Below, piece by piece: positions 13,330-63,284 of a DNA stretch of 64,000 nucleotides. Below the pieces are notes generated by a model. It saw only the letters and a list, made by a program, of their open reading frames with translations, did not search any database and had not been told where the DNA came from. Origin of the DNA: an uncultured Gemmatimonadaceae bacterium (lineage in GTDB: Bacteria > Gemmatimonadota > Gemmatimonadetes > Gemmatimonadales > Gemmatimonadaceae). Positions within the stretch are counted from its first letter, which is position 1. Each line of letters begins with the position of its first letter. A program made the position numbers and the translations under genes. The DNA lies in the NCBI GenBank assembly GCA_963781585.1, contig CAWAGQ010000002.1, forward strand, positions 32,001 to 96,000. The letters run 5' to 3'.

Positions 13330-14190
13330 ATGGCGATGCACGAGCGGACTGTCCGTTGGCTGGTCGCATGCTTCGGCGGCCTAACGATTCTCCCGATGGC
13401 GGCTGCCGCGCAAACCGGCGGCACGCGCGTCCTCTCGGGAGTCGCGGCCGACACGTCCGGCAACCGCGTGCCATACGTCACGGTCTGGTTCGCCGGGACG
13501 CGCCGAACGGTCAGTGACGATTCGGGACGGTTCCGTGTGGAGCTGCCGCGGGAGGCCGGAGTCACCGTGCAGCTGCGCCGGCTGGGTTTCGCCCCGACCG
13601 ATGTTCGCCTCGAGTTCGGCGGCGACACCGCGATGACGATCACGCTGGTACCGGTGGCGGCGAAACTGGCGGCGCTGCGCGTGCAGGCGGAACAGCAGGT
13701 GCTCAGTCTCGAGCTGCACGGGTTCTACGAGCGAATGGCCGAGCAGGAGAAGTGGGGCGGGTCGGGACAGTTCGTCACGCCGGAGGAGATCGAATTCCGC
13801 AAATCGCCGCGAACCACGCAGTTGCTGGACGGCCGGCACGGAGTGGCGCTCAAGGGTGTGGGAAGCTGCAACGTCCAGGTGCAGTGCTTCGTCCCGTTAG
13901 GCACGAACAACTGCATCATGCAGATATACCTCAATGGACAACGCCTGATGCCGACCGGAGGCGCGCGCGCCACCGCCACGGGCGGTATGGTGGCGACGGC
14001 GTTCAGGGCCCTGTCGGGCCAGGCGGCCGTAGCGGGTGGACTGGGTCCGGGCAACGTGGTCTTTCTCGATGATTTCGTGCATCCCTCGGAGCTCGCCGGT
14101 ATCGAGATCTATCAACGGGCGGTTCAGGCACCGCCGCAATACCAGATGCTGAATGGCAATTGCGGTGTGATTCTGGTGTGGACCAAATGA
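13330..14190 (+). CDS. Carboxypeptidase-regulatory-like + TonB-plug-like protein without barrel (paralog C)
   Basis: GGAGG RBS, signal peptide, GFYER..GQFVTPEEI, CIMQIYLNG, AGIEIY, terminal CGVILVWTK. Confidence 0.8.
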   Translation: MAMHERTVRWLVACFGGLTILPMAAAAQTGGTRVLSGVAADTSGNRVPYVTVWFAGTRRTVSDDSGRFRVELPREAGVTVQLRRLGFAPTDVRLEFGGDTAMTITLVPVAAKLAALRVQAEQQVLSLELHGFYERMAEQEKWGGSGQFVTPEEIEFRKSPRTTQLLDGRHGVALKGVGSCNVQVQCFVPLGTNNCIMQIYLNGQRLMPTGGARATATGGMVATAFRALSGQAAVAGGLGPGNVVFLDDFVHPSELAGIEIYQRAVQAPPQYQMLNGNCGVILVWTK

Positions 14191-14269
14191 GAGCCGCGTT
14201 TCCGCTCATCGTCCAAGGACTGGGCGGGGCGGCGTAGGGTCCTGTCGGGGCGCTCGTTCATACTGCGTG

Positions 14270-14430
14270 CTGTCGCGCCGCCACCGCGAACGCCAGAGAG
14301 TACCGCCGCAACCCGTCCGCTGACTCCCACGGGAGACGCAAGAGATCGGATACGCTTGGCACCGGGAAGCGGTACGTCGCAGAGTGTCAGGGAGCGGCTT
14401 CCACGCTTGCGCGACCGCCTCGTCGTCATG
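14270..14430 (-). pseudogene. Degraded copy of the 17383-17781 gene
   Basis: About 50-bp near-identity GCCGCCACCGCGAAYGCCAGARAGTACCGCCGCAACCCGTCCGCTGA with 17459-17508. Confidence 0.6.
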
Positions 14431-14524
14431 CAGGTGAGGTATCGATGTCCACGTCATCGTCGTCGCGGTCAGTGCCTGACACGGGCTCAGCCGGGGGGGG
14501 CACCGCGATTCGCCGGCGCAGCAG

Positions 14525-15301
14525 GTGCACCGGGTGCCTGAGATCCTCGTGGACCTGGAAGCGCGCCCGCTGTGGAACGAGATCGTGGAGGGATTGGGCG
14601 CGATCACGGCGCGATTCATCGACGTGGCCGCAGCAGTACGCAAGGTCGATTCCGGCGAGGTTCGTGCTGCCGCTCTCGTCCTGTTGGGCGACCGCACCGC
14701 GGACGGTGCGCCGAGCGAGCTGACGGCGCGCCGGCTGCGGACGCTGAACGTACACGTGCCCGTGTTGGTCGCCGTGGTCAACGTTCGGATGCGCGACGTT
14801 CCGGTGAAGGCCTACGCCCGCGCCGGCGTCGATGCCCTCTTCCTGATGGACCTTCCGTTCGAACGTCAGGAACTCGGGAAGGACCTGCGCGCGCGACTCA
14901 TGCTTCCCGTCCCTGCACGCCTGCTCGATGCCTTCGGACGACTCCTCAGGCCGGGCGTCGGCAGGACCATCGGGTGCTGGTGCATGCGCAATGCTACGCG
15001 GACGTGTCCCGTGCGTCGCGTGGTCGACTACTTCCGAATCGATGAGAAGCGGCTGGATAAGGAGGTGGAGGCCCTCGGCCTTCCCCCGGTGGGGACGCCT
15101 CTCAGGCTCGGGTGTCACCATCGTGCGCTCGAGCTGGAAGCGAGCGGCGCGCTCTCAATGGAAGGGATTGCGGAGCAACTGGGTTTTCCCGACGCCAAGC
15201 CGCTGGCAGCGATGCGGCGGCACCTGCGAGGGTCACCACGTCTGGCGGCAGTCGCGTCGCCCATTCGGGAGCTTCTGATGATGGGGTTGGAGGAAGTGTA
15301 G
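14525..15301 (+). CDS. AraC-like transcriptional regulator with a receiver-like N-terminal domain
   Basis: C-terminal SMEGIAEQLGFPDAKPLAAMRRHLRG resembles the second AraC HTH. PVLVAV...AYARAGVDALF resembles a receiver fold. Confidence 0.6.
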   Translation: MHRVPEILVDLEARPLWNEIVEGLGAITARFIDVAAAVRKVDSGEVRAAALVLLGDRTADGAPSELTARRLRTLNVHVPVLVAVVNVRMRDVPVKAYARAGVDALFLMDLPFERQELGKDLRARLMLPVPARLLDAFGRLLRPGVGRTIGCWCMRNATRTCPVRRVVDYFRIDEKRLDKEVEALGLPPVGTPLRLGCHHRALELEASGALSMEGIAEQLGFPDAKPLAAMRRHLRGSPRLAAVASPIRELLMMGLEEV

Positions 15302-15309
15302 GGGCCATC

Positions 15310-15430
15310 GCAGGGTGCGGTGTAGCATTTCCGGGATGTGACGACAACGTGGCGCCACGGGACCGGTGACCTCCACGCGCTCCAATATTCTCCAGAAAGT
15401 TGGGGCATTCGCCAGAAAGTGACGTGGTGT
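15310..15430 (+). promoter_or_regulatory. Conserved intergenic element with tandem CCAGAAAGT repeats (copy 2)
   Basis: CCAGAAAGT at 15392-15400 and 15412-15420; homologous to 1694-1820. Confidence 0.6.
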
Positions 15431-16691: not shown

Positions 16692-16700
16692 GGAGGAACT

Positions 16701-21707: not shown

Positions 21708-21857
21708 AGCGCCGGAATTCGCGGAATGCGTCGCGGGTGCGGCGCGCCGCCTAACGTGAGTCAGCCGCGGCGCGGCCCAACGCGGGTCAGAGGTGGCGCT
21801 CTGCCTAACGCGCGGCCGTCCCGGTGCGCCCCCGGTCGTTCGTCCGCGATCGGATGG

Positions 21858-25411: not shown

Positions 25412-25839
25412 ATGCCCGGCCAATTCCTCCCCCCGACCACTCGGCTGGCGACGCCAACACCATCGGCGGCTACATGGCCGTCCATGGACGCCCCGCGGCG
25501 TTCGAGGGATCAGACGGCATGTCGTACAGCGTGGCCATCGAGACGGCGCGCAACGATGACCAGGAGCAGCCGTGGGGAGCGTATTTCCTCTTCCTCCGGT
25601 GGCGGCGCATCGGCCCCCAGGGGGTGGAGGGACACCTCGAGACTGATTTTCTCGCGTTCGGCCAATCGGCCGACGCGGCCTCAGCCGCGTTAGGCGCGAT
25701 GCCGCTCAACAGCGTGCACGAGGAACTGGAGCGGCTCATCGCGGCGCGGCGGCCGTCCCCGGAGCGACGCTGGTGGGATGCCATGCGGGATGAAGGCGAC
25801 GAGGAAGGCGCGCCGGAGCAACCGGACACGCCGCAATGA
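25412..25839 (+). CDS. Conserved hypothetical protein (frameshift in the C-run near 25430)
   Basis: MPGQFLPP joins GDANTIGGYMAVHGRPAAFEGSDG; coupled to rsgA by ATGA. Confidence 0.65.
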
Positions 25840-26867: not shown

Positions 26868-27503
26868 TCAGGGAGACAGTCGCTCGATCACCCACCGATC
26901 GCCGTCACGCCGATATCGCACCCGATCGTGCAGGCGGCTCGGCCGCCCCTGCCAGAACTCCAGCTCGTCAGGCGCGAGGCGGAACCCGCCCCAGTGCGGC
27001 GGGAGCGGCACGTCGCCGCCGGGGAATCTCGCGGCGACCTCTGCCACCTGTGCCTCCAGCCACCCGCGTGCCGGGATCACCGCGCTCTGGATCGACGCCC
27101 AGGCGCCCATCCGCGCGCCTAACGGGCGCGACTGGAAGTACGTCGCTGATTCGGTGGAACTGATCCTGGTCACCGTGCCCTCGATGCGCACCTGCCGTTC
27201 GATCTCCTTCCAGAAGAACACCAGCGCGGCCCGGGGATTCGTCTCGAGCTCCGCCGACTTGCGGCTGCGATAGTCGGTGTAGAACACGAAACCATCCTGC
27301 CCCACGTCCTTGAGCAGGACGATCCGCGCCGACGGCTGCCCGTCGGCCGTGCTGGTCGCCAGCGTCATCGCGTTCGGGTCGACCAGCTCGGCGGCCTGCG
27401 CCTGCGCGAACCAGTGGCGGAACTGCGTGATGGGGTCGGGATCGACGTCGGCCACGTCGAGCGACGCCATCGCGTATTCGCGGCGCAGATCGGGAGGGGA
27501 CAT
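26868..27503 (-). CDS. pdxH: Pyridoxamine 5'-phosphate oxidase
   Basis: [39 protein letters not shown]. Confidence 0.95.
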
Positions 27504-28318: not shown

Positions 28319-28568
28319 CGAAGTCCCCGACATCGACTGCCCCACGGCGCTCCGCCAGCTCTGGGACTACCTGGACGAGGAACTGACCGAGGACCGGATG
28401 GCGATGATGCGCCAGCATATGGCGAAATGCCGACGCTGCCTGCCGCACCACGACTTCGACAAACAGTTCCTCGCGGCCGTCCGCGCCACCCGCCGGGAAC
28501 AGCTGATGCCCCCCGAAGTCAAAGCGCGGGTGATGGAGCTCCTGGCCGAAGCCGGATACGCTGGTTAG
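28311..28568 (+). CDS. Zinc-binding anti-sigma factor (ZAS, RsrA/RshA-like)
   Basis: C...LWDYLDEEL...HMAKCRRC (HxxxCxxC). Confidence 0.9.
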   Translation: MTDEVPDIDCPTALRQLWDYLDEELTEDRMAMMRQHMAKCRRCLPHHDFDKQFLAAVRATRREQLMPPEVKARVMELLAEAGYAG

Positions 28569-28616
28569 GCGCGATCGGTCGACCGCGAGGAGCGTCGCGA
28601 TCGGTTGTCCGGGTGC

Positions 28617-30022: not shown

Positions 30023-32571
30023 AGGACGACGGCAAACGCGGCGCAGCGGGAGTGACCGACCCGCAGGAGGGGAACGCGAAGCCGGCGCCGCCTTCCCGGC
30101 TCATTCGCCACTCGGCGCTCGTCAGGCGGCTGGCGGCGTCCGGTGACCACGCGGCGGTATCCGGCGACCACGCGGGCGCGCCAGGCGCGGCGTGCGAACT
30201 GCCAGACGAAGACGTGAAGCCCGAAGTCGGTCACGGCGTCCCGTCGCGGCTGACCATTCCGGTGACCGGCATGCACTGCGCGGCGTGTCAGGCGCGGGTG
30301 CAGCGCGTGCTCGAACGCACCCCGGGCGTGCAGGCTGCCACCGTGAGTCTCCTGACCGACAGCGCCTCGGTCCGGTTCGACCCCGCCATGGTGGATGGGT
30401 CCGCGCTGGTCGAACGCATCCGTAGCACGGGTTACGGCGCCGAGCTTCCGCTCGAGGAGCGGGGCGCGCTGGAGGAACAGCGCGCGCAGGACGAAGCACG
30501 CGAAGCGGAATTCCGCGACCTGAAGCGGAAAGCCATCGTGGCGCTCGTCGCTGGGGCGGTTGCGATGGTCGTCTCGATGCCCATCATGACGGGGGGCGCA
30601 CACGCCGGCACCGCGGTCACCGATCCGGTGATGCGCTGGGCCACGCAGACGATCGACCCCGTTCTCCGGCGCATCGCGCCGTGGCTGTACGCCGTTCCCC
30701 CGCGGCTCATGGCGTTCCTCCTGCTCGGTATGACCACGGTGGTGATGGCCTGGGCGGGGCGCCACTTCTACACGCGTGCCTGGCTGGGCTTCCGGCACCA
30801 TTCGGCCGACATGAATACGCTGATTGCCGTGGGCACCGGCGCGGCCTACACCTTTTCGCTCGTGGCCACCGTGGCCCCGGGCCTCTTTCTCAGCCGCGGT
30901 CTCGCGCCGGATCTGTATTTCGAGGCGGTGGTCATCCTCATCGGATTCATCCTGCTGGGGAACGCGCTCGAGGCGCGTGCCAAGGGGCGGACGTCCGCCG
31001 CCCTGCGCCGGCTGGTAAACCTGCGGCCGCGTACCGCGCGCGTGGAGCGCGACGGCGAGGAGCAGGACGTGGCGATGGAAGAGGTGAACTCCGGGGACGT
31101 GGTCTCGGTGCGTCCGGGAGAGCGGATTCCGGTGGACGGCGAAGTGACGAGCGGTGCCAGCAGCGTGGACGAATCGATGCTCACGGGCGAGCCGTTGCCG
31201 GTGGAGAAGCAACCCGGCGGTCACGTCATCGGCGGCACCGTGAACGGCCTCGGCGCATTCCGGTACCGGGCCACCACGTTAGGCGCCGACAGCGTGCTGG
31301 CCCAGATCGTCAAGCTGATGCGCGAGGCGCAGGGTTCGCGCGCCCCGATTCAGAATCTCGCCGATCGGGTGAGCGCGGTGTTCGTCCCGGTGGTCATCTC
31401 CATCGCCATTGCAGTATTCGTCGTCTGGTTCGTCGCGGCCGGGAGCGCGCCGCTGCTGCGCGCCGTCGGCGCCTCGGTCGCCGTCCTCGTCATCGCCTGT
31501 CCCTGCGCCATGGGACTCGCGGTGCCCACCGCCGTGATGGTCGCGTCGGGGAAGGGCGCCGAGCTCGGGATCCTCATCAAGGGCGGAGAGGCGCTGGAGC
31601 GCGCCCACCGGATCGACACGGTGGTCCTCGACAAGACCGGAACGCTGACCGAGGGGCGGCCGGTGATGACCGATGTCCTGGCCACGCCGGCCTTCGACGA
31701 AGGCGCGGTGCTGCGGCTCGCCGCGTCGCTCGAGCGGTCATCCGAGCACCCCCTCGCCACGGCCCTGGTGGACGCCGCCCGCGACCGTGGGCTCAGTCTG
31801 ACCGACGCCGAGTCGTTCACGTCGGTCACCGGCCGGGGCGTTGTTGGGAAGGTGGACGGCCGCGACGTGGCCGTCGGCAACGCGGCACTCCTGGGTGACC
31901 GCGGGATCGATCCGACGCCCCTCGACGCACAGGCGAAGACCCTGGCGAATGATGCGCGGACGACGATGTTCGTCGCCGTCGACGGCCGGCTCGCCGGGCT
32001 CGTGGCGGTCGCCGACCCGCTCAAGAAGTCCTCGGTGGAGGCGGTGGCGGAGTTGCGCGCGATGGGCCTCGATGTCGTGCTCCTGACCGGCGATGTGGAG
32101 GCGACAGCCCGCGCGATCGCCGGGCACGCGGGCATCGAACGCATCGTGGCTGGCGTCCTGCCATCGGGGAAGGTGGACGAGATCACCCGGCTGCAGCAGG
32201 AAGGGCGCGTGGTGGCGATGGTGGGCGATGGGATCAATGACGCTCCCGCGCTTGCCCGGGCCGACGTCGGGATCGCGATCGGTACCGGCACCGACATCGC
32301 CATCGACGCCAGCGATATCACCCTCATGCGCGGTGACGTGCGCGGTGTGGCCCAGGCCATCAAACTGGCCCGCCGGACGATGCGCACCATGAAGCAGAAC
32401 CTCTTCTGGGCGTTCGTCTACAACGTGATCGGCATCCCGATCGCGGCGGGGGTTCTGTACCCGGCCTTCGGCCTGATGCTGAGTCCCATTCTCGCCAGTG
32501 CGGCGATGGCCATGAGCTCGGTCAGCGTCGTGTCCAACAGCCTGCGACTGGGCAGGTTCCGTCCTGCCTGA
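30019..32571 (+). CDS. copA: Cu(I)-translocating P1B-type ATPase
   Basis: GMHCAAC HMA, TGE, CPC, DKTGT, SEHP, GDGIND, YN and MAMSS. Confidence 0.95.
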
Positions 32572-39638: not shown

Positions 39639-42600
39639 ATGCTCAAGCGCATCATCGAATGGTCGGTCGCCAACAAGCTGCTCGTCGTGCTGTTCACGCT
39701 CGCGGCGGCGCTGGGCGGCATCTGGGCGGTACGTCGCACGCCGCTCGAAGCGCTCCCCGACCTCTCCGACGTGCAGGTCATCGTGCAGACCGATTACAAC
39801 GAGCAGGCGCCGCAGATCGTGGAGGATCAGGTCACCTACCCGATCACCGCCGAGATGCTGAAGGTGCCCGGCGCGCGCGTGGTCCGCGGCTACTCGTTCT
39901 TCGGCGTGTCGTTCGTCTACGTGATCTTCCAGGATGGCACCGACCTGTACTGGGCGCGATCACGGGTTCTCGAGTACCTCAACGGACTCGTGGCCAAGCT
40001 GCCCGCAAGCGTCATCACCGCGCCTGGGACCGGACGCCACCGGACTGGGATGGGTCTTCCAGTACGCGCTCGAGGACACGAGCGGACGTCTCGATCTCGC
40101 GCAGCTGCGCAGCCTGCAGGACTGGTACGTGCGTTATGCGTTGACCGCGGTTCCCGGTGTGTCCGAGGTGGCGTCGGTGGGGGGATTCGAGAAGCAGTAC
40201 CAGGTGGACGTGGATCCCGAGAAGCTGCTGGCCTACGGGATTCCGGTCACGCGTGTGATGGAGGCCATCCGTAACGCGAACGCCGACGTCGGCGCGATGG
40301 TGCTCGAGCTGGCCGACCGCGAGTACATGGTGCGCGGGCTGGGGTACCTCGAATCGATTGGCGACATCGAGAACGTGGTGGTGGGCGCCACCGCGTCGGG
40401 TACGCCGATCCGGGTGGCCGAGCTGGGGCGGGTGTCGGTCGGTCCGGCGGTGCGGCGGGGCGTCGCCGACCTCGATGGGCGGGGTGACGCGGTGGGAGGG
40501 ATCGTGGTGATGCGATTCGGGGAGAACGCACTCGCCACCATCGAGCGGGTGAAGGCGAAGCTGGTCGAGGTGGAGAGAGGCCTGCCGCCGGGCGTGGTGA
40601 TCCAGCCGGTCTACGATCGCTCCGACCTCATTCACCGCGCCATTGAAACGCTGCGCGGCAAGCTGTTCGAGGAGAGCCTGATCGTCGCGCTGGTCTGTCT
40701 GGTCTTCCTCTTCCACGCCCGGTCCGCGCTGGTCGCCATTCTCACGCTTCCGTTAGGCGTGCTGATCGCGTTCATCGCCATGCGCTGGGTGGGGGTGGGC
40801 GCGGACATCATGTCGCTGGGCGGCATCGCCATCGCGGTCGGCGCCATGATCGACGCGGCGATCGTGATGGTCGAGAACATGCACAAGCACATCGAGCGGG
40901 CGCAGGGCAACGCCCCGATCGTTCGGGCGGTCCGCCCCGTCAGATTCTCGCTCGCGCGAATCCTCGGGCGCCGCTCTGCCGGAGCGGATTCGCGCGACGC
41001 GGATGTGCGGTGCACGATCCCCGCATCGCGGCGCTGGCAGATCGTCGTCGATTCGTCGAAGGAAGTGGGCCCGGCCCTCTTCTTCTCGCTGCTCATCATC
41101 ACGGTGTCGTTCCTCCCCGTGTTCACGCTGGAGGGACAGGAGGGACGCCTGTTCCGGCCGCTGGCGTTCACCAAGACGTTTGCGATGGCCGGCGCCAGCC
41201 TGCTGTCGGTGACCATCGTGCCGGTGATGATGGGCCTCTTCATCCGCGGACGGATCTACCGGGAGCGGGCCAATCCGGTGAACCGGGCGCTCATCAGGAT
41301 CTACCGCCCGGTCATCGAGTTCGTGCTCCGCCACCGGCTCGGCGTGATCGTGGCAAGCGGAATGGTGCTGATCCTCACCTGGATTCCGTGGAGCCGCATC
41401 GGCAGCGAGTTCATGCCGCCCCTGGAGGAGGGGTCCATTCTCTACATGCCCACCACGCTCCCGGGTGTGAGCGTGGCGCGCGCGCGCGCGATCCTGCAGA
41501 CACAGGACTCGATTCTCAAGTCCTTCCCGGAGGTGGAGCACGTGTGGGGAAAGAGCGGGCGCGCGAACACCGCGACCGATCCGGCCGGGCTCGACATGAT
41601 CGAGACGACGATCACGCTGAAGCCGAAGCAGGAATGGCGGAGCGGAATGACGCTACGATCGTCTCGTCGCGGCGATGGACTCGGCCGTGCGGCTTCCCGG
41701 GGTGTCCAACTCGTGGACCATGCCCATCAAGGGACGCATCGACATGCTCGCGACAGGCATTCGCACTGCCGTCGGCATCAAGATCTTCGGGCCGGACCTG
41801 GGCACACTGGAGCGCCTGGGAAAGGAAGTCGAAGATGCGGTTCGCATGGTTCCCGGAACGCGTACCGCATTCGCCGAGCGCGCCCAGTCGGGATAGTATC
41901 TCGACATCGCGATCGACCGGGCGGCGGCGGCCCGCTACGGGTTGAACGTGGGTGACGTGCAGGCCGTGATCGCCACGGCCATCGGCGGCATGACGATCAC
42001 GCAGACAGTGGAGGGTCGGGAGCGGTACGCGGTCCGCGTGCGCTATCCGCAGGAGCTGCGCGACAGTCCGGAGCGCCTGGCGAGCGTGCTGGTGAGCGTC
42101 CGGATCGGGGCGCCGTCGAAGGGCCGGTGCGCAACCGGGCGGAAATGGGAGGCAGATGAGCGGGATGGGCGCCGCGGCGCCCGCCGCCGCAGCGCGCAGA
42201 TCCCGTTAGGCCAGGTGGCGACGATTCGCGAGGTGCCCGGGCCGATGGTGGTGCGCACCGAGGGCGCAGTACCCACCGCCTGGGTCTACGTCGACATCAT
42301 AGGCCGCGACATCGGGAGCTACGTGCGCGAAGCGCAGGCAGCACGTGGAGGACATGGTGGTGCTGCCGCAAGGATACACGCTCACCTGGAGCGGGCAGTA
42401 CGAGTACATGCAGCGAGCACGCGAACGGATGAAACTGGTGGTGCCCGCCACGCTGGCCATCGTGTTCCTGCTGCTCTACTTCAACTTCAGGAGTGTGGCG
42501 GAAACGGCCATCGTCATGCTTTCGCTTCCGTTCGCGCTGGTTGGCGGCATCTGGTTCCTCTGGGCGTTGCACTACAACTGGTCGGTGGCGGTGGCGATCG

Positions 42601-46840: not shown

Positions 46841-48810
46841 TGGCGCTGTTCTTCGCCGGACTGGGCCTGATCATCGCCGGCGCCATCGTCGCCACGATCC
46901 TCCGGGAATGGGATGGAGCAGACGCGCTCTTTCAGGTGCTGGTCATCACCGGGTGCGTCCTGTCGGGCGCCCAAGCCGTGTCGGTGCTGGTGCAGGGCAC
47001 CCATCCCCAGTTCGTGCTGCACGCGTCTGTGCCCGGGGGCGACTGGGTATTCGGCATCGATGCGCTCTCGGCGGTGTTCCTCCTGGTCGTCCTTGTCGTG
47101 GGCGCCATCACGCTGCGCTTCGGCGTCGTGTATCTCGCGGCGTACCGCGGGCAGCGCCCGATCTGGTTTTCGCACGCGACGTACGCCGTTCTCCTTGTCG
47201 CCCTCGCTCTGGTCGTCGTCGCGCGCGCCGTCGTGCCGTTCCTCTCGGCATGGGAGATCATGGCGGTCGGTTCGTACTTCCTCATCGTCTTCGAGGATGA
47301 GAAACCCGAGGTGCGGCGTGCCGGTCTGGTGTACCTCGTTGCCACGCATGCCGGGACCCTGGCGCTCTTGGCGATGTTTGCGACCTGGGCGATGGGAGCC
47401 CACGCCGCGGACTGGTCGTTCTCGTCGCTCGCGGTCGTCGCGCCTCGGCTGGCGGGCGGCGGGTTCGTGCTGACGCTGGCCGCTGTCGGGTTCGGCGTGA
47501 AGGCCGGCCTCGTCCCACTGCATTTCTGGCTTCCGCCCGCCCACGCCGCCGCGCCCACACACGTGTCCGCAATCCTTTCCGGGGTTGTGATCAAGGCCGG
47601 GATCTATGGTCTGCTGCGGGTGCTCGCGATGCTGGGTGGCGCACCCGCCTGGTGGGGATGGGGCTTGCTGCTGGTGGGCGCCGCCTCTGGTGTGCTGGGT
47701 GTGCTGTGGGCCCTGGCGCAGCACGACCTCAAACGCCTGCTGGCGTACCACAGCGTCGAGAACATCGGCATCATCCTGATGGGAACCGCCGTCGGTGCGT
47801 TAGGCACGCACTACGGGCACCCGGTCGTGGCGACCATCGGCTACGCCGGCGCCGTGCTGCACACCATCAACCATGCGCTCTTCAAGAGCGTCCTCTTCCT
47901 GGCAGGGGGCTCGGTGTATCGGGCGACCGCGACCAGGGAACTGGAGCAGCTCGGCGGACTCGCGCGGGCGCTGCCGTACACCACGATCGCCTTTGTCATC
48001 GGTGCGGTGGCCATCATCGGATTGCCGCCCCTCAACGGTTTCGTGAGCGAATGGCTCGTGTACCAGGCCCTGTTGCGCGCGTCCCAGTCGGCCGAGGTGC
48101 TTCGTCTCGCCGTACTCGGCGTGCCGGCCCTGGCCTTGATCGGCGCGCTGGCCCTCGCGTGTTTCGCCAAGGTCATCGGGGTGGTCTTTCTGGGTACACC
48201 CCGAAGCGCACACGCGCGAGACGTGAGCGAGGTGCCGCTCCGCCCGCTCGTCGCTCCCATGTACGTGCTCGCCGGCCTTTGCGTCGTGCTCGGTGTAGCC
48301 GCGCCTCTCGGAGTGGCACCTTCACTGCGCGCCGGAGCGATCGCCGCGCACGCGTCGGCCGTGGATCTGGGAGACGCCCGTGCGCTGCTCGTGGATGCGC
48401 GCGTGATCGGCACGCTGGCCGTCGCGATGCTCGCACTCATTCTTGTGGTCTGGGTCGGCCGTGGGCTATTGCAGGCGCGCGCACCGCGGCGGACCGGCGT
48501 GACATGGAGCTGCGGATACACTCGTGTCTCCCCGCGCATGCAGTACACCGCCTCGTCGTTCGCGGCGCCTCTGCTCACCGCGTTCGGACGCCTGAGCGGA
48601 GTGCAGACCTCGCGATCACCCACCTCGTTCGCGACGCATCCGTACGATCTGGTGCTCGATCGCCTGGCCGCGCCCGTCTGGGCACGTGTCCGTCGAGCGG
48701 CCCTGCGCCTGCGCCCTCTGCAGCAGGGGCGGCTGTACGCGTACCTCATCTACGTCATGACGGCTCTGCTCGCGCTCCTCGGTTACCTCGCCCTCGCATC
48801 GCGCCCATGA
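46840..48810 (+). CDS. hyfB: HyfB-like antiporter-type membrane subunit
   Basis: PLHFWLPPAHAAAP, DLKRLLAYHSVENIG, PPLNGFVSEW, WSCGY..RMQYTASSF. Confidence 0.88.
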   Translation: MALFFAGLGLIIAGAIVATILREWDGADALFQVLVITGCVLSGAQAVSVLVQGTHPQFVLHASVPGGDWVFGIDALSAVFLLVVLVVGAITLRFGVVYLAAYRGQRPIWFSHATYAVLLVALALVVVARAVVPFLSAWEIMAVGSYFLIVFEDEKPEVRRAGLVYLVATHAGTLALLAMFATWAMGAHAADWSFSSLAVVAPRLAGGGFVLTLAAVGFGVKAGLVPLHFWLPPAHAAAPTHVSAILSGVVIKAGIYGLLRVLAMLGGAPAWWGWGLLLVGAASGVLGVLWALAQHDLKRLLAYHSVENIGIILMGTAVGALGTHYGHPVVATIGYAGAVLHTINHALFKSVLFLAGGSVYRATATRELEQLGGLARALPYTTIAFVIGAVAIIGLPPLNGFVSEWLVYQALLRASQSAEVLRLAVLGVPALALIGALALACFAKVIGVVFLGTPRSAHARDVSEVPLRPLVAPMYVLAGLCVVLGVAAPLGVAPSLRAGAIAAHASAVDLGDARALLVDARVIGTLAVAMLALILVVWVGRGLLQARAPRRTGVTWSCGYTRVSPRMQYTASSFAAPLLTAFGRLSGVQTSRSPTSFATHPYDLVLDRLAAPVWARVRRAALRLRPLQQGRLYAYLIYVMTALLALLGYLALASRP

Positions 48811-50395: not shown

Positions 50396-51825
50396 TCCTC
50401 GTCCTTCTCATCCTGCTCCCAGCCGCGGCGGCGGTCGCGGCGTACCGGATTCGCAGCCTCGCGCGCAGCGCGATCCTGTTGTTCAGCGTCAGCGGCCTCC
50501 ATGCGCTCCTGACCGGGGCACTCTGGTTTCGCACCGAGGACAGCGCGCTGAACGGCTGGCTCGCTGCCGATCCCCTGGGCCGGATCGTGATTACCGTGGT
50601 GAGCCTGCTCTTCCTGGCTGTCGCGCACTACTCGATCGGGTTCCTGCGCCGCGCCGTCGCCCCGGGTGGGCGCGCGTTCGCGAGTTGCATGCTCACCTTC
50701 CTGGCGGCGTGCTCACTGGTCGCGCTGAGCCATCACCTGGCCCTTCTCTGGATCGGACTCGAAGCGACCACCCTGGCAGTAGCGCCGCTGATCTTCGACC
50801 GGCACGACCGCCGCTCGCTGGAGGCCGTATGGAAGTACCTCGTACTCTCGTCGGTGGGCATCGCGTTTGCCCTGCTCGGTGTGTTCCTGATGGCCACCGC
50901 GCAGTCCTCCGGCGCGGCCGCAGGACGCCCACTCATTCTCGATGACATGATTGCCCATGCCAGCCTGCTCGACGCCGCGTGGCTGCGCATGGCCTTCGTT
51001 TTCATCGCGATCGGTTTCGGGACCAAGATGGGTCTTGCCCCCATGCACGCGTGGAAGCCCGACACGTACGGCGAGGCGCCGAGCCTGGTGGGCGGCCTGA
51101 TGGCCGGCGCGCTCACGACATGCGCGTTCCTCGGCCTTGCTCGGGCGTGCGCCATCTGCTTCGCCGCCGGGCTCGGCCCCTTCGTACGCCCGGTGCTGAT
51201 CGTGTTCGGGCTGGTTTCGCTGCTCATCGCCGCGGCGTTCATTGTCGGACAGGGTGATGCCAAGCGCCTGCTCGCCTATTCGAGCGTGGAGCACATGGGA
51301 CTCCTCGTGCTCGGACTCGGACTGGGCGGCGTGGGCACCTATGGCGCATTGCTTCATTCGGTCAACAACGGCCTCGTGAAGGGCCTGGCCTTTCTGGCCG
51401 TCGGCAATGTGGTGCTCGTCACCGGCACGTCCAGCGCGAGCGACGTTCGCGGACTCCTGCGAACGTTGCCCGCCACCGGCGCCCTGCTCGTGGTGGCGCT
51501 GTTCGCGCTCACCGGCTCGCCTCCGTTCGGTCTGTTCCTGAGCGAGTTCACGATTCTCGGTGCCGCCTTCGGCGGTCCGCATCCATGGATCGGAATGGTG
51601 ACGATCGCGCTTCTGGCCATCAGCTTCGTCGGAATCGGGGGGATGATGCTCGGGATGGTCCTTGGGCAGCCCGACGCCGCGCCGCGCCGCGCGAATGACC
51701 GGGGCCTGTGGCTTGCACCCCTGGTGCTGGGTGGTCTGGTGCTCATGCTCGGCGTGTACGTTCCGCCGCCGCTGGCGCATGCCCTTTCGCGGGCCGCTAC
51801 AGCGTTAGGCGGCCTGGCACCGTGA
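50392..51825 (+). CDS. hyfF: HyfF-like antiporter-type membrane subunit
   Basis: LEAVWKY, GTKMGLAPMHAWKPDTYGEAP, KRLLAYSSVEHMG, PPFGLFLSE. Confidence 0.88.
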   Translation: MILVLLILLPAAAAVAAYRIRSLARSAILLFSVSGLHALLTGALWFRTEDSALNGWLAADPLGRIVITVVSLLFLAVAHYSIGFLRRAVAPGGRAFASCMLTFLAACSLVALSHHLALLWIGLEATTLAVAPLIFDRHDRRSLEAVWKYLVLSSVGIAFALLGVFLMATAQSSGAAAGRPLILDDMIAHASLLDAAWLRMAFVFIAIGFGTKMGLAPMHAWKPDTYGEAPSLVGGLMAGALTTCAFLGLARACAICFAAGLGPFVRPVLIVFGLVSLLIAAAFIVGQGDAKRLLAYSSVEHMGLLVLGLGLGGVGTYGALLHSVNNGLVKGLAFLAVGNVVLVTGTSSASDVRGLLRTLPATGALLVVALFALTGSPPFGLFLSEFTILGAAFGGPHPWIGMVTIALLAISFVGIGGMMLGMVLGQPDAAPRRANDRGLWLAPLVLGGLVLMLGVYVPPPLAHALSRAATALGGLAP

Positions 51826-54905: not shown

Positions 54906-56589
54906 ATGCGCCGCCGCGCGGTCTTCGCCGTTCTCGCCCTCATCGCCTGGAACCCAGCCGTGACTGCGGCCCAATCGCCCAGCATCACCCTGGCCGTGGT
55001 GAACGCCCGCGTCTGGACCGGCGATCCCGCGCCGGCCGTGGGCCGACGGCCGTCGCCATCGCCGGCGACCGCATCGCCGCCGTGGGCTCCTCGGCCGAGA
55101 TCCGGAAGCTCGCCGGTCAGGCGCGAACGATAGATGCCGGCGGCCAGTTCGTGGCCCCCGGGTTCATCGACTCCCACGTCCACTTCCTCGAGGGCGGATT
55201 CCGGCTCTCGTCGGTGCAGCTGCGCGACGCCGGCACGCCCGAGGAGTTCGTTCGACGCATCCGGGAATTCGCCGCCACGGTTCCGAAGGGCGCCTGGATC
55301 ACCGGCGGCGACTGGGATCATCAGCGCTGGGGCGGGGAGCTTCCCGAGCGCTCGTGGATCGACACGGTGACCCCCGACAATCCGGTCTGGGTGAATCGCC
55401 TTGATGGCCACATGGCGCTCGCCAATTCCGCCGCGCTGCGCGCGGCAGGCAGTCACGCGCGCCACCGCCGATATCGCGGGCGGCACGATCGTGCGCGACC
55501 CGACCGGCGAGCCCACCGGCATTCTCAAGGACAACGCGCAGAACCTGGTGGAGCGCGTGGTGCCTGCGCCGCCCGCGTCACTGGAGGACCGCGCCCTCGA
55601 TGCGGCGATGGCGTACGTGGCGGCGCAGGGGGTGACGTCGGTGCACCACATGGGCAGCTGGCACGATCTGGCGGTGTTCGAGCGCGCCCATGCCGCCGGC
55701 CGGTTGCGCACGCGGATCTATGCGGCGGTTCCCCTCGCGACCTGGGCGCGGCTCCGCGACACCGTCGCCGCCCGCGGGCGCGGCGACGAGTGGCTGCGCA
55801 TCGGCGCCCTGAAAGGCTTCGTCGACGGATCGTTAGGCTCGCATACCGCGGCCATGTTCGACCCGTTCACCGATGCGCCCACGGACACGCGGGTTGTTCG
55901 TGAATACGCCCGGCGACCTCTACCAGTGGACATCCGGGGCCGACAAGGCCGGTCTCCACGTCATCGTCCACGCCATCGGGGACCGCGCCATCGCCACGCA
56001 GCTCGACATCTACCAGCGCGTCGAGCGCGAGGACGGTCCCCGCGACCGCCGCTTCCGCATCGAGCACGCCCAGCACATCGCCCCGGCCGATTTTCCGCGC
56101 TTCGCCGCGTTGGGCGTGGTGGCGAGCATGCAACCCTACCACGCCATCGACGACGGACGGTGGGCCGAGAAGGTCATCGGTCCCGAGCGGGCGAAGGGGA
56201 CCTACGCCTTCCGCACCCTGCTCGATCGTGGCGCCACGCTCGCGTTCGGCAGCGACTGGTTCGTGGCGCCGCCCACGCCGCTGGACGGCATCTACGCCGC
56301 AGTCACCCGCCGCACCCTCGACGACGCGCACCCCGATGGATGGATTCCGGAGCAGAAGATCACGGTCGAGGACGCGCTCCGCGCGTACACCGCTGGAGGT
56401 GCCTTCGCATCCTTCGAGGAAGCCGGGAAGGGCGTCCTGGCGCCCGGCAAGCTCGCCGATCTGGTCATGATCGACCGCGACCTCACGCGTATCCCATCGG
56501 TGGAGATTCGGAACGCCCATGTGGTCATGACGGTGGTGGGCGGCAGGATCATCTACGAGCGGCCGAAGCAGCCTCGCGAGTCGAATTGA
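54906..56589 (+). CDS. Amidohydrolase family 3 (YtcJ-like), exported; about three frameshifts
   Basis: [57 protein letters not shown] spread across frames. Confidence 0.88.
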
Positions 56590-56661: not shown

Positions 56662-57468
56662 ATGTCCTCACGATCTCTTCCCGTACTCGAGCGCCGCGGT
56701 TTCGGCGAAACGCTGCGCCGCGACGCCTGGTGGGCGCCCAACATCCCGCCCCAGATCATCCTCACCGCGTTCCTCATCTACGCCACCTGGGCAGCGTTTC
56801 AGAACGCGGACTACACCTTCGGACCGTACCTCTCCCCGTTCTATTCACCCGAGCTGTTCGGCAGCTCGCCCCATGCGTGGTTCGGGCCAAGGCCGGGCGG
56901 ATGGCCCACGTGGCTCCCGTTTTCTCCGGCGCTGATCATCCTTCCCGTGCCCGCCCTCTTCCGCTTCAGCTGCTACTACTACCGCGGCAGCTACTACAAA
57001 GCGTTCTGGCAGGATCCTCCCGCGTGCGCCGTGGGCGAGCCGCGAAAACACTACCGCGGGGAGCGGACCTTTCCGCTCGTGCTGCAGAATTTCCATCGAT
57101 ACGGCCTGCTGCTCTCCGCGATCTTCCTCGTCATCCTCACCTTCGACGCGGCCCACGCCTTCTGGTTCACCGATCCGGTTACCGGTGCCGGGCACTTCGG
57201 CATCGGACTCGGCACGATCATCATGTTCGTCAACGTGATCCTGCTGGCCGGCTACACGTTCGGATGCCACGCCACCCGCCACATCGTGGGTGGCATTGTC
57301 GATGAGGTCTCCCTGTCGCGACCGCGGTGGCTGCTTTATGCCATCTCCAGCGTGTTCAATCGCGCCCACATGAAATGGGCCTGGGTGAGCCTGTTCTCGG
57401 TGGCGCTCACCGATCTCTACATCCGACTCTGCGCCATGGGTGTCCTGAGCGACCTGAGACTGCTCTGA
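56662..57468 (+). CDS. Succinate dehydrogenase membrane anchor, Rv0249c-like
   Basis: YLSPFYSP, CYYYRGSYY, PPACAV, QNFHRY, GCHATRH; five predicted TM helices. Confidence 0.8.
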   Translation: MSSRSLPVLERRGFGETLRRDAWWAPNIPPQIILTAFLIYATWAAFQNADYTFGPYLSPFYSPELFGSSPHAWFGPRPGGWPTWLPFSPALIILPVPALFRFSCYYYRGSYYKAFWQDPPACAVGEPRKHYRGERTFPLVLQNFHRYGLLLSAIFLVILTFDAAHAFWFTDPVTGAGHFGIGLGTIIMFVNVILLAGYTFGCHATRHIVGGIVDEVSLSRPRWLLYAISSVFNRAHMKWAWVSLFSVALTDLYIRLCAMGVLSDLRLL

Positions 57469-59279
57469 TGCCCGACTTCGAGTCGGTCGAACACGATGTG
57501 CTGGTGATCGGGGCGGGGGGAGCGGGACTGCGTGCCGCCATCGCCGCGGCCTCGCACGGTGCGCGGGTCGGGCTGGTGTCGAAATCGCTCCTGGGCAAGG
57601 CCCACACGGTCATGGCCGAGGGCGGAGCGGCGGCCGCGCTCGCCAACGTCGACGATCGCGACAGCTGGCGCGTGCACTTCGCCGACACCATGCGCGGCGG
57701 GCAGTACGTCAACAACTGGCGCATGGCCGAGCTCCACGCCAGGGAAGCACCCGAGCGCGTGCGCGAGCTGGAAGCGTGGGGCGCTCTGTTCGATCGCACC
57801 CCGGACGGCCGCATCCTCCAGCGGAATTTCGGCGGCCACAAGTATCCGCGGCTGGCGCACGTCGGTGACCGGACGGGTCTGGAGATGATCCGCACGCTGC
57901 AGGATCACGTCATCCATCAGGGCATCGACGTCCATATGGAGTGCACCATCGTGTCGCTCCTGAAGGACGGCGATCGGGTGGCCGGCGCGTTCGGATACGA
58001 GCGCGAGCGCGGCCGGTTTCGCCTCTTTCGTGCGGCCGCCGTGGTGCTCGCGACCGGCGGCATCGGCCGCGCATACCGGATCACCAGCAACAGCTGGGAG
58101 TACACGGGGGACGGTCACTCCCTCGCGTATCACGCCGGCGCCGACCTGAAGGACATGGAATTCGTGCAGTTCCATCCCACCGGGATGATCTGGCCGCCGA
58201 GCGTGCGGGGAATCCTGGTGACGGAAGCGGTGCGCGGCGAGGGCGGCGTGCTGCGCAACAGCCAGGGTCGCCGGTTCATGTTCGACGACGTTCCCGAGCT
58301 CTATCGCGCGCAGACGGCGGACAATGAAGAGGAGGGGTGGCGCTACACCCAGGGCGACCGCGCCGCCCGCCGTCCGCCGGAGCTGCTCACCCGCGACCAC
58401 GTGGCCCGGTGCATCCTGCGCGAGGTCCGGGAAGGGCGGGGGAGTCCCCACGGCGGCGTGTTTCTCGACATTGCCTGGATCCGGGAAAGACTGCCTAACG
58501 CCGCCGAGCATATCCGGAAGAAGCTGCCCAGCATGTACCATCAGTTCAAGCAGCTGGCCGACATCGATATCACCACCACGCCCATGGAGATCGGACCTAC
58601 CACCCACTACGTGATGGGCGGCGTGAGCGTCGATGGCGACACCCAGATGTCCACCGTGCCGGGCCTGTTCGCCTGCGGCGAGTGCGCCGCCGGCCTCCAC
58701 GGCGCCAACCGGCTCGGCGGCAACTCCCTGTCCGATCTGCTCGTCTTCGGCAAGCGGGCCGGCGACTACGCGGCGGAATTCGCGAGTGAGCACGGAACCA
58801 CCAGGGTCGACCAGCACGCGGCGGAGCAGGTTGCCGCGGCATCCCTCGCTCCGTTCGAGCGTTCCGGCGGCGAATCGCCGTTCGCCATCCAGCACGATCT
58901 CCAGGTCATGATGCAGGATCTGGTCGGCATCGTGCGGCGCGAGGAGGAGATGCGCCGGGCGCTCGACGGCCTCGCCGCACTGCGGCGCCGTGCCGAGGCC
59001 GCCGGAGTGCCGGGCAACCGGGAGTACAACCCCGGCTGGCACACCGCCCTCGACCTCGCCAACCTGTTCACCGTCTCCGAGGCGATTACCCGCTCCGCCC
59101 TGGCGCGCAAGGAAAGCCGCGGCGGACACTTCCGAGAGGACCATCCCGCGAAGGATCCGAGCTACGGGGTGTTCAACATCATCGTCCGCCGGACGCCCGG
59201 CGGCGCCATGGAGCTCGAGCGCGTGCCCATCCGCGCCATGCCTGACGAGTTGAAGAAAGTGATCGAAGAGGAGCAGTGA
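57468..59279 (+). CDS. sdhA: Succinate dehydrogenase/fumarate reductase flavoprotein
   Basis: GAGGAG, KAHTVMAEGG, QFHPTG, HYVMGG, HGANRLGGNSL, ESRGGH. Confidence 0.93.
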   Translation: MPDFESVEHDVLVIGAGGAGLRAAIAAASHGARVGLVSKSLLGKAHTVMAEGGAAAALANVDDRDSWRVHFADTMRGGQYVNNWRMAELHAREAPERVRELEAWGALFDRTPDGRILQRNFGGHKYPRLAHVGDRTGLEMIRTLQDHVIHQGIDVHMECTIVSLLKDGDRVAGAFGYERERGRFRLFRAAAVVLATGGIGRAYRITSNSWEYTGDGHSLAYHAGADLKDMEFVQFHPTGMIWPPSVRGILVTEAVRGEGGVLRNSQGRRFMFDDVPELYRAQTADNEEEGWRYTQGDRAARRPPELLTRDHVARCILREVREGRGSPHGGVFLDIAWIRERLPNAAEHIRKKLPSMYHQFKQLADIDITTTPMEIGPTTHYVMGGVSVDGDTQMSTVPGLFACGECAAGLHGANRLGGNSLSDLLVFGKRAGDYAAEFASEHGTTRVDQHAAEQVAAASLAPFERSGGESPFAIQHDLQVMMQDLVGIVRREEEMRRALDGLAALRRRAEAAGVPGNREYNPGWHTALDLANLFTVSEAITRSALARKESRGGHFREDHPAKDPSYGVFNIIVRRTPGGAMELERVPIRAMPDELKKVIEEEQ

Positions 59280-60085: not shown

Positions 60086-60120
60086 CTGCCTCTGACCTTT
60101 GGCCTCTGACCCATGACCTT
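60086..60120 (+). repeat. Heptamer tandem repeat (TGRCCNN family)
   Basis: TGACCTT TGGCCTC TGACCCA TGACCTT; contains the ATG at 60113. Confidence 0.7.
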
Positions 60121-60619: not shown

Positions 60620-60639
60620 CCTCCGCGGGGGCCGCACAA

Positions 60640-60678
60640 AATGAAGACGCCGGCGTCCACCACGCCGGCGTCTTCATT
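60640..60678. terminator. Hairpin between convergent genes (probable bidirectional terminator)
   Basis: 17-bp perfect stem AATGAAGACGCCGGCGT with a 5-nt loop. Confidence 0.8.
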
Positions 60679-60697
60679 CTCCCGGGCTGACGGATCG

Positions 60698-60877
60698 TCA
60701 GAGCGCGGCGCGCACGGAGACCAGGAGGAAGAGCGCCGCGGCTACGACCGCCGTCCCAAGCAGGACCAGAACCAGTCCCAACCGGCCTGAGCCGGTTGCT
60801 TTCGGCACCTGCGTTTCGGCGGCAAACTCCTTTTGCCAGAGAGGGTGTCGGTGTACTTCGAGGTGACTGATCGTCAT
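60698..60877 (-). CDS. Small membrane protein
   Basis: 59 aa with a C-terminal hydrophobic helix. Confidence 0.45.
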   Translation of the reverse strand: MTISHLEVHRHPLWQKEFAAETQVPKATGSGRLGLVLVLLGTAVVAAALFLLVSVRAAL

Positions 60878-61174
60878 GTGCCTTACGCCGTCAGGGAGCA
60901 ACCAGGGCGGGGTGACAGTCGCCCGCGGCTGTCTTGGAGCAAGCCCCGGACCGTGACGGTTTCCAGCTCTGCCCGGTCACGGAGTGGCACTCACACCGGC
61001 AGGATCGTGGCTGAGGGAACACAGTTGTGGCAGACGTGGGACAACACGAGGGTGAGCCTGGACCAATGAGGGGCAGCGACTCCGGCTGCGGCGCGAGTGT
61101 CGGCGCGGACGTCGTCGCCAGTGTCTGAGCCGACGTCGATTGGGTCGCCAGTGCCGCCCTGCCTGACGCGGGTG

Positions 61175-63284
61175 CTAGAAGCGAACGATCTCCTGATACG
61201 CCGCCACGAAAGTCGTCGACCTGGGGCAGAATCGCGTCCTCCAGCCTGGGCGCGTAGCCGACGAATGTGTCCGCCGACCCGATTCGACGCACCGGGGCGT
61301 CGAGCCAGGGGAAGCACTCGTTCGCGATCCGGCTCGCGATCTCCGATCCGTATCCCCACGACAGTGAATCTTCGTACGCCACGATCACCCGGTTGGTCTT
61401 CTTGACGGAAGCAAACACCGTCTCGCGGTCCCAGGGCGAGAGCGATCGCAGATCGATTACCTCCACCGAGATGCCCTCGTCGGCTACCTTGTTGGCGGCC
61501 GTGAATGCGCGGTGCACGGTGGCGCCGTAGGTCACCAGCGTCACATCCGTCCCTTCGCGCACCACTTTCGCCTTCCCGAACGGGATCATGAAATTCGGTC
61601 CGGGATACGCCGCCTTGTTGTAGGTCTGCCGGTACAGATGCTTGTGCTCGAGGAACATTACCGGGTCGTCGCACCGGATGGCGGTCCGCAGGAGTCCGTT
61701 TGCGTCGAGCGCCGTCGCCGGACAGATCACGCGCAGTCCGGGGCACTGGGTGAATAGCGAGGCGCCGGTCTGTGAATGGTAGATGGCACCGCGGATGTAG
61801 CCGCCGTAGGTCGTCCGCACGACCACCGGCGCGCTGAAGAAATTGTTGGATCGCCAGCGCATCGTGGCCAGCTCGTTGCGGAGCTGCATGTACGCCGGCC
61901 AGATGTAGTCGAAGAACTGAATCTCCACCACCGGCTTGAACCCACGCAGCGCGAGGCCGACCGCGCGCCCGACGATGTTCGCCTCGGCCAGCGGCGAGTT
62001 GTACACGCGATCGGCGCCGAATTCCTTCTGCAAGCCCCACGTCACCTTGAACACCCCGCCTTTCCCCTTGACCTTGCCGAGGTACTGGTCGCGCGACACG
62101 TCGGCCACATCCTGCCCGAAGACGATGATCCTTCCGTCCCGCCGCATCTCGTCGCGCATGCAGGAATTCAGCAGGTCCACCATCGTCGTCTCGTTCCCCG
62201 AGAACTGGGGATCGTCTTCGGTATCGAATTGCTCGCTGGTGGGATCGACGTCCGGGGAATAGACCCCGACGTACACCGATGCCGGCTCCGGCTGTTCCCT
62301 GCCTAACGCGTCGTCGGTCGCGGCCTGCACCACGCCCTCCACATCGCCGCGGATGCGCTCCAGGTCCGCCTCCGATGCGTGCCCCTCCTTCAGCAGCCAC
62401 GCGGGGTAGGTCGTCACCGGGTCGCGCGCCGCGTCGGCACTCCGCTCCTCCGGCGGCCGATAGAGCACCTCGTCGTCGGACAGCGAATGGGAGTAGGGAC
62501 GGATCACGTGCGCGTGCACCAGCGCCGGACCCTGTCCGCTCCGCACGTACTGCACCGCGTCCGCCATCACCGCGTGGCTGGCGACGAAGTCGCAGCCGTC
62601 GACCTCCTGGATGAGCAGCCCCGGGAATCCCGCCACCAGCTTCGAGATCGAGCCCCCCGCGGTCTGCACCTCGACCGGAACGGAGATCGCGTACCCGTTG
62701 TCCTCGACGAGATACAGCACCGGGAGTTTGAGATTGCACGCGGTATTGAGCGATTCCCAGAACTCGCCCTCGCTCGTGGTGCCGTCACCCGCGGACACGT
62801 AGACGACCTCGTCCTCATGCGCCCCGATGTCGAGCCCGAGTCGCCGGGCGCGCATGATGCCCTCCGCGCATCCCACCGCGTGCAGGAACTGCGTCCCCGT
62901 CGGCGACGACGACGACACGATGTTCAGCGCCTTGTGCCCCCAGTGGCTCGGCATCTGCCGCCCACCGGAATTCGGATCGATCGCAGCGCCCACGGCGGAA
63001 TACAGCATCTCTTCCGGCTTCATCCCGAGCTCCAGACAGAGCGCCCGGTCCCGGTAATACGGGAAGAACCAGTCGTACGACGGTCGGAGGAGCATCCCGG
63101 CCGCCGTCAGCACGGCCTCGTGTCCGGCGCCGGAAATCTGAAACCAGATCCGGTTCTGTCGCTTGAGCTGGATCTCCTTGTCGTCCAGGCGGCGCGACAG
63201 GAGCATCGTGCGGTACGCGGACAACAGCTGGTCGCGGCTCAGGTCGGTGGCGGTGGGTCGCTGGGCTTTGAGTCTTGTCGGCAT
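61175..63284 (-). CDS. 2-oxoacid (branched-chain-type) dehydrogenase E1, fused alpha+beta
   Basis: [16 protein letters not shown] (TPP motif), HSLSDD, SPLAEA, EIQFFDY, FLEHK. A frameshift near 61210 precedes the true end [10 protein letters not shown]. Confidence 0.92.

Follow-up and report, generated by a model that had tools for sequence, protein, structure and literature searches.

According to the available part of PMC4390886, three classes of hyper-abundant oligomers are recognised in genomes, namely Chi sites, uptake sequences and highly iterated palindromes (HIPs). Uptake sequences, Chi and HIP1 offer rare handles on how own DNA is told from foreign DNA, and the cases that are well understood all come from a few cultivated groups. 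Here we report that the octamer CGTTAGGC is a lineage-specific hyper-abundant DNA word, present in coding and non-coding DNA, in a stretch of 64,000 nucleotides from an uncultured Gemmatimonadaceae bacterium (GenBank assembly GCA_963781585.1, contig CAWAGQ010000002.1, positions 32,001 to 96,000 of the forward strand; hereafter the window) and in some of its relatives. An exact search of the window finds 14 copies, eight on the plus and six on the minus strand, in full agreement with the coordinates, strands and mixed orientation given in a preliminary description made from the letters alone, as well as the one-off variant GGTTAGGC that it had placed at 28563. The word is non-palindromic, its reverse complement being GCCTAACG.

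The overuse of CGTTAGGC in the window is confirmed. In 100 dinucleotide shuffles the mean count was 1.00 ± 1.06 and the largest 5, none reaching 14; a second-order Markov model expects 0.46 copies and ranks the word as the most exceptional 8-mer of the window. A synonymous-codon null was also run on a coding map (codon log-odds trained on Pfam-supported open reading frames, ORFs), permuting codons among positions of the same amino acid and thereby leaving proteins, dipeptides and global codon usage unchanged. Across 2000 such shuffles the mean was 0.26 and the maximum 3, and none reached the 11 copies observed in coding segments. The preliminary description had guessed at 2-3 copies by chance, which is too high beside these means of 1.00, 0.46 and 0.26, and it had named a codon- and dipeptide-aware null as the test that might overturn its claim; that null is exceeded about 40-fold and the enrichment stands. 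Overall the overuse is some thirty times above what chance or codon usage would give. TTA makes up only 15 of the 1879 Leu codons in coding segments and nine of these 15 lie within CGTTAGGC (not counting the tenth motif TTA, at 51803, which lies slightly beyond a trimmed segment), so TTA is indeed rare elsewhere, as had been remarked. The TTAG tetramers are likewise concentrated in the motif as described, with 14 of the 24 on both strands of the window in CGTTAGGC and one more in GGTTAGGC (15/24). Among the [SPTA]-L-G tripeptides of the coding segments, 9 of 48 are spelled with the TTA of CGTTAGGC.

The word recurs in relatives. A search of genome contigs with SdhA, taking 10 kb of flank, returned 80 loci amounting to 1.17 Mb, those of motif-bearing relatives being 4-22 kb long. 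One of them (L002, from a Gemmatimonadaceae metagenome-assembled genome, MAG, with 66% G+C) is syntenic with 56.7-60.5 kb of the window at about 72-77% nucleotide identity and carries eight copies in 13 kb, CGTTAGGC being its top-ranked 8-mer. Five loci from Chthoniobacterales/Verrucomicrobiota (54-60% G+C, 81.5 kb) carry 40 copies, as T-CGTTAGGC: 19 in the 21.8 kb of L015, 7 in L020, 4 in L021, 9 in L024 and 1 in L029. The pooled counts are 22 against 0.64 expected for the window with L002, and 40 against 1.54 for the five Verrucomicrobiota loci, together 62 copies in 158 kb where about 2.2 would be expected; the other 73 loci (1.08 Mb) hold 5 copies against an expectation of 17.6. In L015, L020 and L024 the word ranks second, just behind the overlapping TCGTTAGG, and in L021 third, with weaker significance (4 against 0.22). 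No comparably exceptional 8-mer was found in any other of the 80 loci at the sample size that they afford. Density among motif-bearing sequences runs from one copy per 1.1 kb to one per 4.6 kb, the latter being the value for the window.

Within each phylum the distribution is patchy. The carriers are 2 of 27 Gemmatimonadota sequences (the window and L002) and 5 of 9 Verrucomicrobiota loci; 25 other Gemmatimonadota loci (354 kb) have no copy at all, nor have the Verrucomicrobiota loci L028 (11 kb, P = 0.005) and L067 (15 kb, P = 0.0007), judged at the mean density of their group. A FastTree phylogeny of SdhA, which took in the 61 of 81 sequences that were long enough, places the motif-bearing rows in two separate regions, a Verrucomicrobiota clade with the motif in 5 of its 8 rows and a poorly resolved Gemmatimonadota group, and at least three state changes are needed. 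This tree and the synteny with L002 also indicate the phylum of the window itself. With 32,896 strand-collapsed octamers to choose from, chance convergence cannot explain an identical core in two phyla.

We conclude that CGTTAGGC is a DNA-level signal, as the preliminary description had proposed from its persistence against codon bias; in addition to the codon null, this is supported by copies in all four frames, on both strands and between genes, and by codon choice in SdhA. In the lower-GC Verrucomicrobiota loci, where assignment by longest ORF is unambiguous, 18 of the 40 copies read nCG-TTA-GGC, 4 C-GTT-AGG-C, 6 antisense G-CCT-AAC-G and 11 antisense GC-CTA-ACG, while 1 lies in a short ORF or between genes, so that all four stop-free frames and both strands are in use (22 sense, 17 antisense). 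The word is extended in these loci by T at -1 (37/40), A at +2 (25/40) and A at -3 (23/40), and these preferences are independent of reading frame. The Gemmatimonadota copies are the bare octamer with none of this extension, and the flanks in the window, earlier described as unconstrained, indeed show no conservation in the adjoining bases. SdhA supplies two natural controls. At [KR]x[KR]LPNA, covered by 21 loci, Pro-Asn is spelled CCT-AAC only in the window and L002; at DG[HQ]SLGY, covered by five loci, L015, L021 and L024 have TCG-TTA-GGC, with CTG or CTC as the Leu codon in L039 and L045. Some copies come at the price of amino-acid changes: F-G or V-V in the window corresponds to L-G in L002, and in DGHSL[A/G]Y the motif-bearing Verrucomicrobiota have Gly and most sequences have Ala.

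Sites of CGTTAGGC come and go quickly, but they persist more often than neutral sequence does. An approximate test, since pairs share L015, was made on seven pairwise alignments with 70-79% identity; these contain a union of 34 sites, of which 9 are shared and 8 are one base off in the partner. Retention per genome is about 42% (18/43), while 8-mers as a whole reach 12% in these alignments. Such dynamics are just what drive, or selection on number, would lead one to expect.

The 14 copies of CGTTAGGC and the one-off variant lie in the window as follows.

13379..13386, minus strand: antisense in a CarboxypepD_reg gene (13228-14190, plus), read there as GGC-CTA-ACG (G-L-T) in the signal peptide
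13895..13902, plus strand: sense CCG-TTA-GGC (P-L-G) in the same CarboxypepD_reg gene, 13228-14190
21749..21756, minus strand: convergent intergenic gap between an M14 peptidase gene (ending at 21707) and a minus-strand ORF ending at 21858
21803..21810, minus strand: same intergenic gap (21708-21857), a direct repeat 54 nt from the copy at 21749
25688..25695, plus strand: sense GCG-TTA-GGC (A-L-G) in a small gene, about 25447-25818
27117..27124, minus strand: sense CCG-TTA-GGC (P-L-G) in a pyridoxamine-phosphate oxidase (PNP-oxidase) gene, 26868-27614 (minus)
28563..28570, plus strand: one-off variant GGTTAGGC, its TAG being the stop codon of a small zf-HC2 (anti-sigma-like) ORF, 28308-28568
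31277..31284, plus strand: sense ACG-TTA-GGC (T-L-G) in a P-type (CopA-like) ATPase gene
40751..40758, plus strand: sense CCG-TTA-GGC (P-L-G) in a CusA/AcrB-family gene
42204..42211, plus strand: sense CCG-TTA-GGC (within I-P-L-G-Q-V) in a CusA/AcrB-family gene
47798..47805, plus strand: sense GCG-TTA-GGC (A-L-G) in a Proton_antipo_M (NuoL/Hyf-like) gene, 46840-48810
51803..51810, plus strand: sense GCG-TTA-GGC (A-L-G) at the C-terminus of a Proton_antipo_M gene, 50392-51825
55831..55838, plus strand: sense TCG-TTA-GGC (within D-G-S-L-G-S) in an amidohydrolase_3 gene
58493..58500, minus strand: antisense in sdhA (57327-59279, plus), read there as CTG-CCT-AAC-GCC (L-P-N-A); the site is also occupied in L002
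62301..62308, minus strand: sense GCG-TTA-GGC (A-L-G) in a fused E1 dehydrogenase gene, 60891-63353 (minus)

Translation around each copy, together with Pfam, puts 10 of the 14 copies in the nCG-TTA-GGC sense frame, the same number as first described; of the rest, two are antisense within genes (13379 and 58493) and two are intergenic. The frame preference stressed in the preliminary description is therefore present, but it is mostly an effect of opportunity: the most frequent of the compatible tripeptides is [SPTA]-L-G, and the sense to antisense ratio of 16:4 in the window and L002 matches an opportunity ratio of about 4:1 (opportunities in the window: L-G frame 48, V-R frame 51, antisense L-T 16, antisense P-N 6). 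Since GGTTAGGC supplies the stop of the zf-HC2 ORF, the CGT-TAG frame, closed within genes, is usable at gene ends. The orientation counts are 13:6 in L015, 5:4 in L024, 3:4 in L020 and 4:4 in L002, and with the 8:6 of the window the majority orientation pools to 34/57, where hand estimates, made with replichores not assigned, give about 35 without skew and about 43 at 75% skew. A replication-like skew is thus not seen within loci, a weak one being possible with replichores unassigned, and the counts do not fit a strongly strand-skewed, architecture-imparting octamer or the FtsK-orienting polar sequences (KOPS), with more than 80% per replichore in one orientation. Nor is periodic spacing supported in the window, in spite of several gaps of about 4 kb (coefficient of variation, CV, 0.72; P = 0.15); at the 13-64 kb scale spacing across loci does not differ from random (CV 0.61-0.93, P 0.15-0.57).

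More ordinary contexts do not account for the word. A dispersed repeat or mobile element, of the repetitive extragenic palindrome (REP) or miniature inverted-repeat transposable element (MITE) kind, was rejected: flank information is near zero beyond -3 to +2 and 12 of the 14 copies lie inside genes. A promoter of the extracytoplasmic function (ECF) sigma factor type, suggested by CGTT, was rejected as well, GGAAC standing 10-35 nt upstream at 0/40 and 1/22 sites. No tRNA gene and no Rfam match occurs in the window, leaving no RNA-gene context, and no terminator-like site was found at the intergenic pair 21749/21803. Another close direct pair, like this one, occurs at 12576-12598 of L015, where an exact CGTTAGGC and the one-off CGTTAGGT stand 14 nt apart in the same orientation, at the point where the alignment with L020 breaks down.

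What might read the word? The reading we favour, tentatively and at rather less than even confidence, is that CGTTAGGC would be an uptake or self-recognition tag kept by molecular drive, similar to the DNA uptake sequence (DUS) of Neisseriaceae and the uptake signal sequence (USS) of Pasteurellaceae. It is suggested by an asymmetric contiguous word of 8-11 specified bases, placed every 1-5 kb, of the order of the DUS and USS density of about one per kb, with no strand polarity, with dialects, with placement that depends on the peptide, and with absence from an accessory stretch. Point substitutions would write the word into coding and non-coding DNA alike, and what keeps it there would be a force on duplex DNA itself, with protein, mRNA and mobile repeats playing no part. 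Some factor in an uptake or recombination pathway that recognises DNA would prefer fragments bearing the word; alleles that gain it would then be over-transmitted by transformation and homologous recombination, and the word would accumulate wherever the peptide tolerates it, mostly at [S/P/T/A]-Leu-Gly, even at the cost of the rarest Leu codon. We infer an uptake or self-recognition machine as the reader of the word, and transfer of that recogniser as the cause of the word's occurrence in both phyla. It is rather doubtful, though, that a sequence-specific system of this kind, reading (T)CGTTAGGC, moved between uncultivated soil Gemmatimonadota and Chthoniobacterales and rewrote codons by the hundreds to thousands in every genome that received it.

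Several observations weigh against an uptake tag. No uptake, competence or receptor gene was seen in the 64-kb window, which lacks type IV pilus, ComEA/ComEC and DprA genes, or in the 4-22 kb loci of relatives, and we know of no experimental competence in Gemmatimonadota or Verrucomicrobiota, a literature search having also listed none. The pair between genes, 21749 and 21803, is in direct orientation, unlike the inverted terminator pairs typical of DUS and USS. The V-R frame is clearly under-used: it needs GTT-AGG, and none of its roughly 51 opportunities in the window is taken, so the placement of the motif is shaped by coding cost. One-off variants are not generally enriched. In Gemmatimonadota their hand-made sum is about 60 against 52 expected, with only GGTTAGGC (3 against 0.47) and CGTTATGC (4 against 0.63) standing out. 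For Verrucomicrobiota the hand-made sum comes to about 77 where 55 are expected; the variants cluster at positions 1, 7 and 8, which are enriched 3.5-5x (TGTTAGGC 8 against 0.78, CGTTAGGG 8 against 0.70, position 7 as a whole 13 against 3.2), and not at the centre, and this would fit a HIP1-like methyltransferase model too. The identical core in two phyla implies transfer or deep conservation of the recogniser, neither of which is proven. Finally, bases 1-13378 of the window hold no copy of CGTTAGGC and are accessory-like, with toxin-antitoxin modules and paralogous genes; the absence is as first described, but with P = 0.038 under uniform placement it is only weak evidence. On the side of an uptake tag, natural competence is argued to be probably common in abundant soil bacteria (PMC7305173, in its available part).

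The choice among functions as an uptake-like tag, a HIP1-like word, a modification target or a nucleoid site is not settled. In a HIP1-like drive the word would be, or contain, the target of a horizontally mobile DNA methyltransferase, and methylation-linked biased repair, very-short-patch-like or methyl-directed, would create and maintain it; in addition, DNA could be marked for transformation by the methylation, a role reported for HIP1. The patchy distribution in both phyla fits mobile modification genes, the end-concentrated variants of Verrucomicrobiota resemble the end-biased deviations of HIP1 described in the part of PMC4390886 at hand, and the fold enrichment of 26-34x falls within the 15-300x that the consulted section of PMC5861425 gives for HIP1. 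We nevertheless consider it unlikely, since the word is no palindrome, its 8-11 contiguous specified positions are longer than a methyltransferase usually specifies, the commonest Gemmatimonadota variant, GGTTAGGC, is a transversion and not a deamination product, and no methyltransferase, Vsr or repair gene was seen in the 64-kb window. HIP1 is itself now argued, in the accessible portion of PMC13756078, to be a methylation-dependent transformation or uptake tag, so the uptake and HIP1-like readings may converge.

Recognition by other DNA-binding machinery seems weaker than either. As a recombination-hotspot or self signal for a helicase-nuclease of the RecBCD/AddAB type, a non-palindromic contiguous 8-mer that is overused in core genes and missing from the accessory stretch would look familiar, and one copy per 4.6 kb in the window is near the density of Chi in Escherichia coli, which occurs about once per 4.5-5 kb and rides on common codons. 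The near-random orientation (34/57, against about 43 at 75% skew), an over-representation much stronger than that of Chi and the opposition of the word to codon usage make this improbable. Hardly more probable is a site for an abundant chromosome-structuring or nucleoid protein, selected for number and distribution, a role that Xu et al. reportedly proposed for HIP1 in 2018. Retention above background, genome-wide distribution and both orientations would suit such a site; spacing is indistinguishable from random, most sites are species-specific, and nucleoid proteins rarely read 8-9 exact asymmetric bases.

Explanations that need no reader of the DNA are hardly credible. For a translation-level signal of the bldA type, in which the rare TTA codon of CG-UUA-GGC would matter, it could be said that 10 of the 12 genic copies in the window share one sense frame and that 9 of 15 TTA codons lie in the word. 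It is rejected because of the copies in all four frames and on both strands in Verrucomicrobiota, the antisense and intergenic copies in the window, the preferences for T at -1 and A at +2 that ignore reading frame, and the SdhA codon control. A sequencing or assembly artefact would draw on the many apparent frame changes in the window, which suggest a noisy assembly; the word is equally enriched in MAGs from what, judging by contig names that point to different assemblers, are several independent assemblies, and it sits in intact conserved codons away from the frame changes.

The frame changes are a feature of the window in their own right. About 15 are apparent, at approximately 30019, 38740, 40023, 41644, 41892, 42338, 54816, 55046, 55448, 55891 and others, with Pfam domains continuing in another frame in CusB, CusA (at least 4 pieces), amidohydrolase (at least 3 pieces) and CopA. 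They are neither in long homopolymers nor at the octamer, and represent either residual indel errors of assembly or pseudogenes. The motif-free first 13 kb contains a toxin-antitoxin cluster at 9657-12191, comprising an AbiEii-like nucleotidyltransferase (weak match), HepT with MNT (Polbeta), and MazF/PemK with a ribbon-helix-helix (RHH) antitoxin; a PIN gene with a MazE/AbrB-type antitoxin lies further along, at 28626-29489. Paralogous CarboxypepD_reg cassettes with 79-93% nucleotide identity occupy 1-1821, 8012-8662, 12375-12715 and 14723-15427, and include a conserved non-coding 80-mer at 1742-1821 and 15348-15427; a separate 56-nt repeat stands at 14277, 17459 and 19842. Tandem arrays of a 14-nt unit, made of the 7-mers GGCCTAT and GACCTAT, are found at 27604-27653 and 45648-45711, with a weaker copy at 60100-60118. 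The two arrays lie in divergent intergenic regions, the former upstream of the PNP-oxidase start, by an ECF sigma gene, and the latter upstream of a rhodanese gene, by a ferredoxin-like gene. These arrays, whose 11-mer GGCCTATGACC is absent from the loci of all 80 relatives, may be operator or iteron-like sites.

We found no report of CGTTAGGC or its complement as a genomic motif: among the matches listed were only primers, oligonucleotides and unrelated sequences, supplements being outside the search. The 9-mer combined with the taxa gave no match in the literature among those listed, and for uptake-type or highly iterated words in Gemmatimonadota or Verrucomicrobiota we likewise found no report, the literature returning DUS, USS and HIP1 papers and ecology papers. 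A transferred uptake system, if real, would be without precedent both as a DUS/USS-type tag beyond Proteobacteria and as one shared across phyla, and would point to a cross-phylum exchange community in soil. The octamer, asymmetric and prevailing over codon usage in soil lineages that are abundant but mostly uncultivated, is a testable entry to how these lineages exchange or mark DNA; binning and the detection of recent DNA acquisitions could use the word as a marker, and it might help to make its hosts transformable.

In summary, CGTTAGGC belongs to the known hyper-abundant lineage-specific oligomers, and what is unusual is the identical core in parts of two phyla. With HIP1 (GCGATCGC, of cyanobacteria) it shares being an octamer of comparable fold enrichment in coding DNA, with sites conserved above background (PMC4390886 and PMC5861425, as far as the available parts go), a tendency of one-off variants, in Verrucomicrobiota, towards the ends, and a possible role as a tag, proposed for HIP1 in methylation-dependent form (PMC4390886, PMC13756078, likewise in part). 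Unlike HIP1, it is non-palindromic, has no known cognate methyltransferase, shows no periodicity at the 13-64 kb scale and is patchy within each phylum, not phylum-wide. Asymmetry, lineage specificity, a length of eight bases and a density close to that of Chi in E. coli are what it shares with the Chi of RecBCD/AddAB; it departs from Chi in lacking an orientation skew within loci, in its far greater over-representation and in running against codon usage. It differs from DUS and USS in its hosts, uncultivated soil Gemmatimonadota and Verrucomicrobiota, not Proteobacteria; in having the same core in two phyla; in intergenic copies that are direct and not inverted terminator pairs; and in a density of one per 4.6 kb in the window, lower than the roughly one per kb of DUS and USS. 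Yet what it has in common with these is that 8-11 specified bases form one unbroken, non-palindromic word, over-represented by tens of times, with copies every 1-5 kb in both orientations, placed within genes in tolerated frames and sometimes forcing amino-acid changes, together with dialects (the bare octamer and T-CGTTAGGC-n-A), turnover between species and absence from an accessory stretch.

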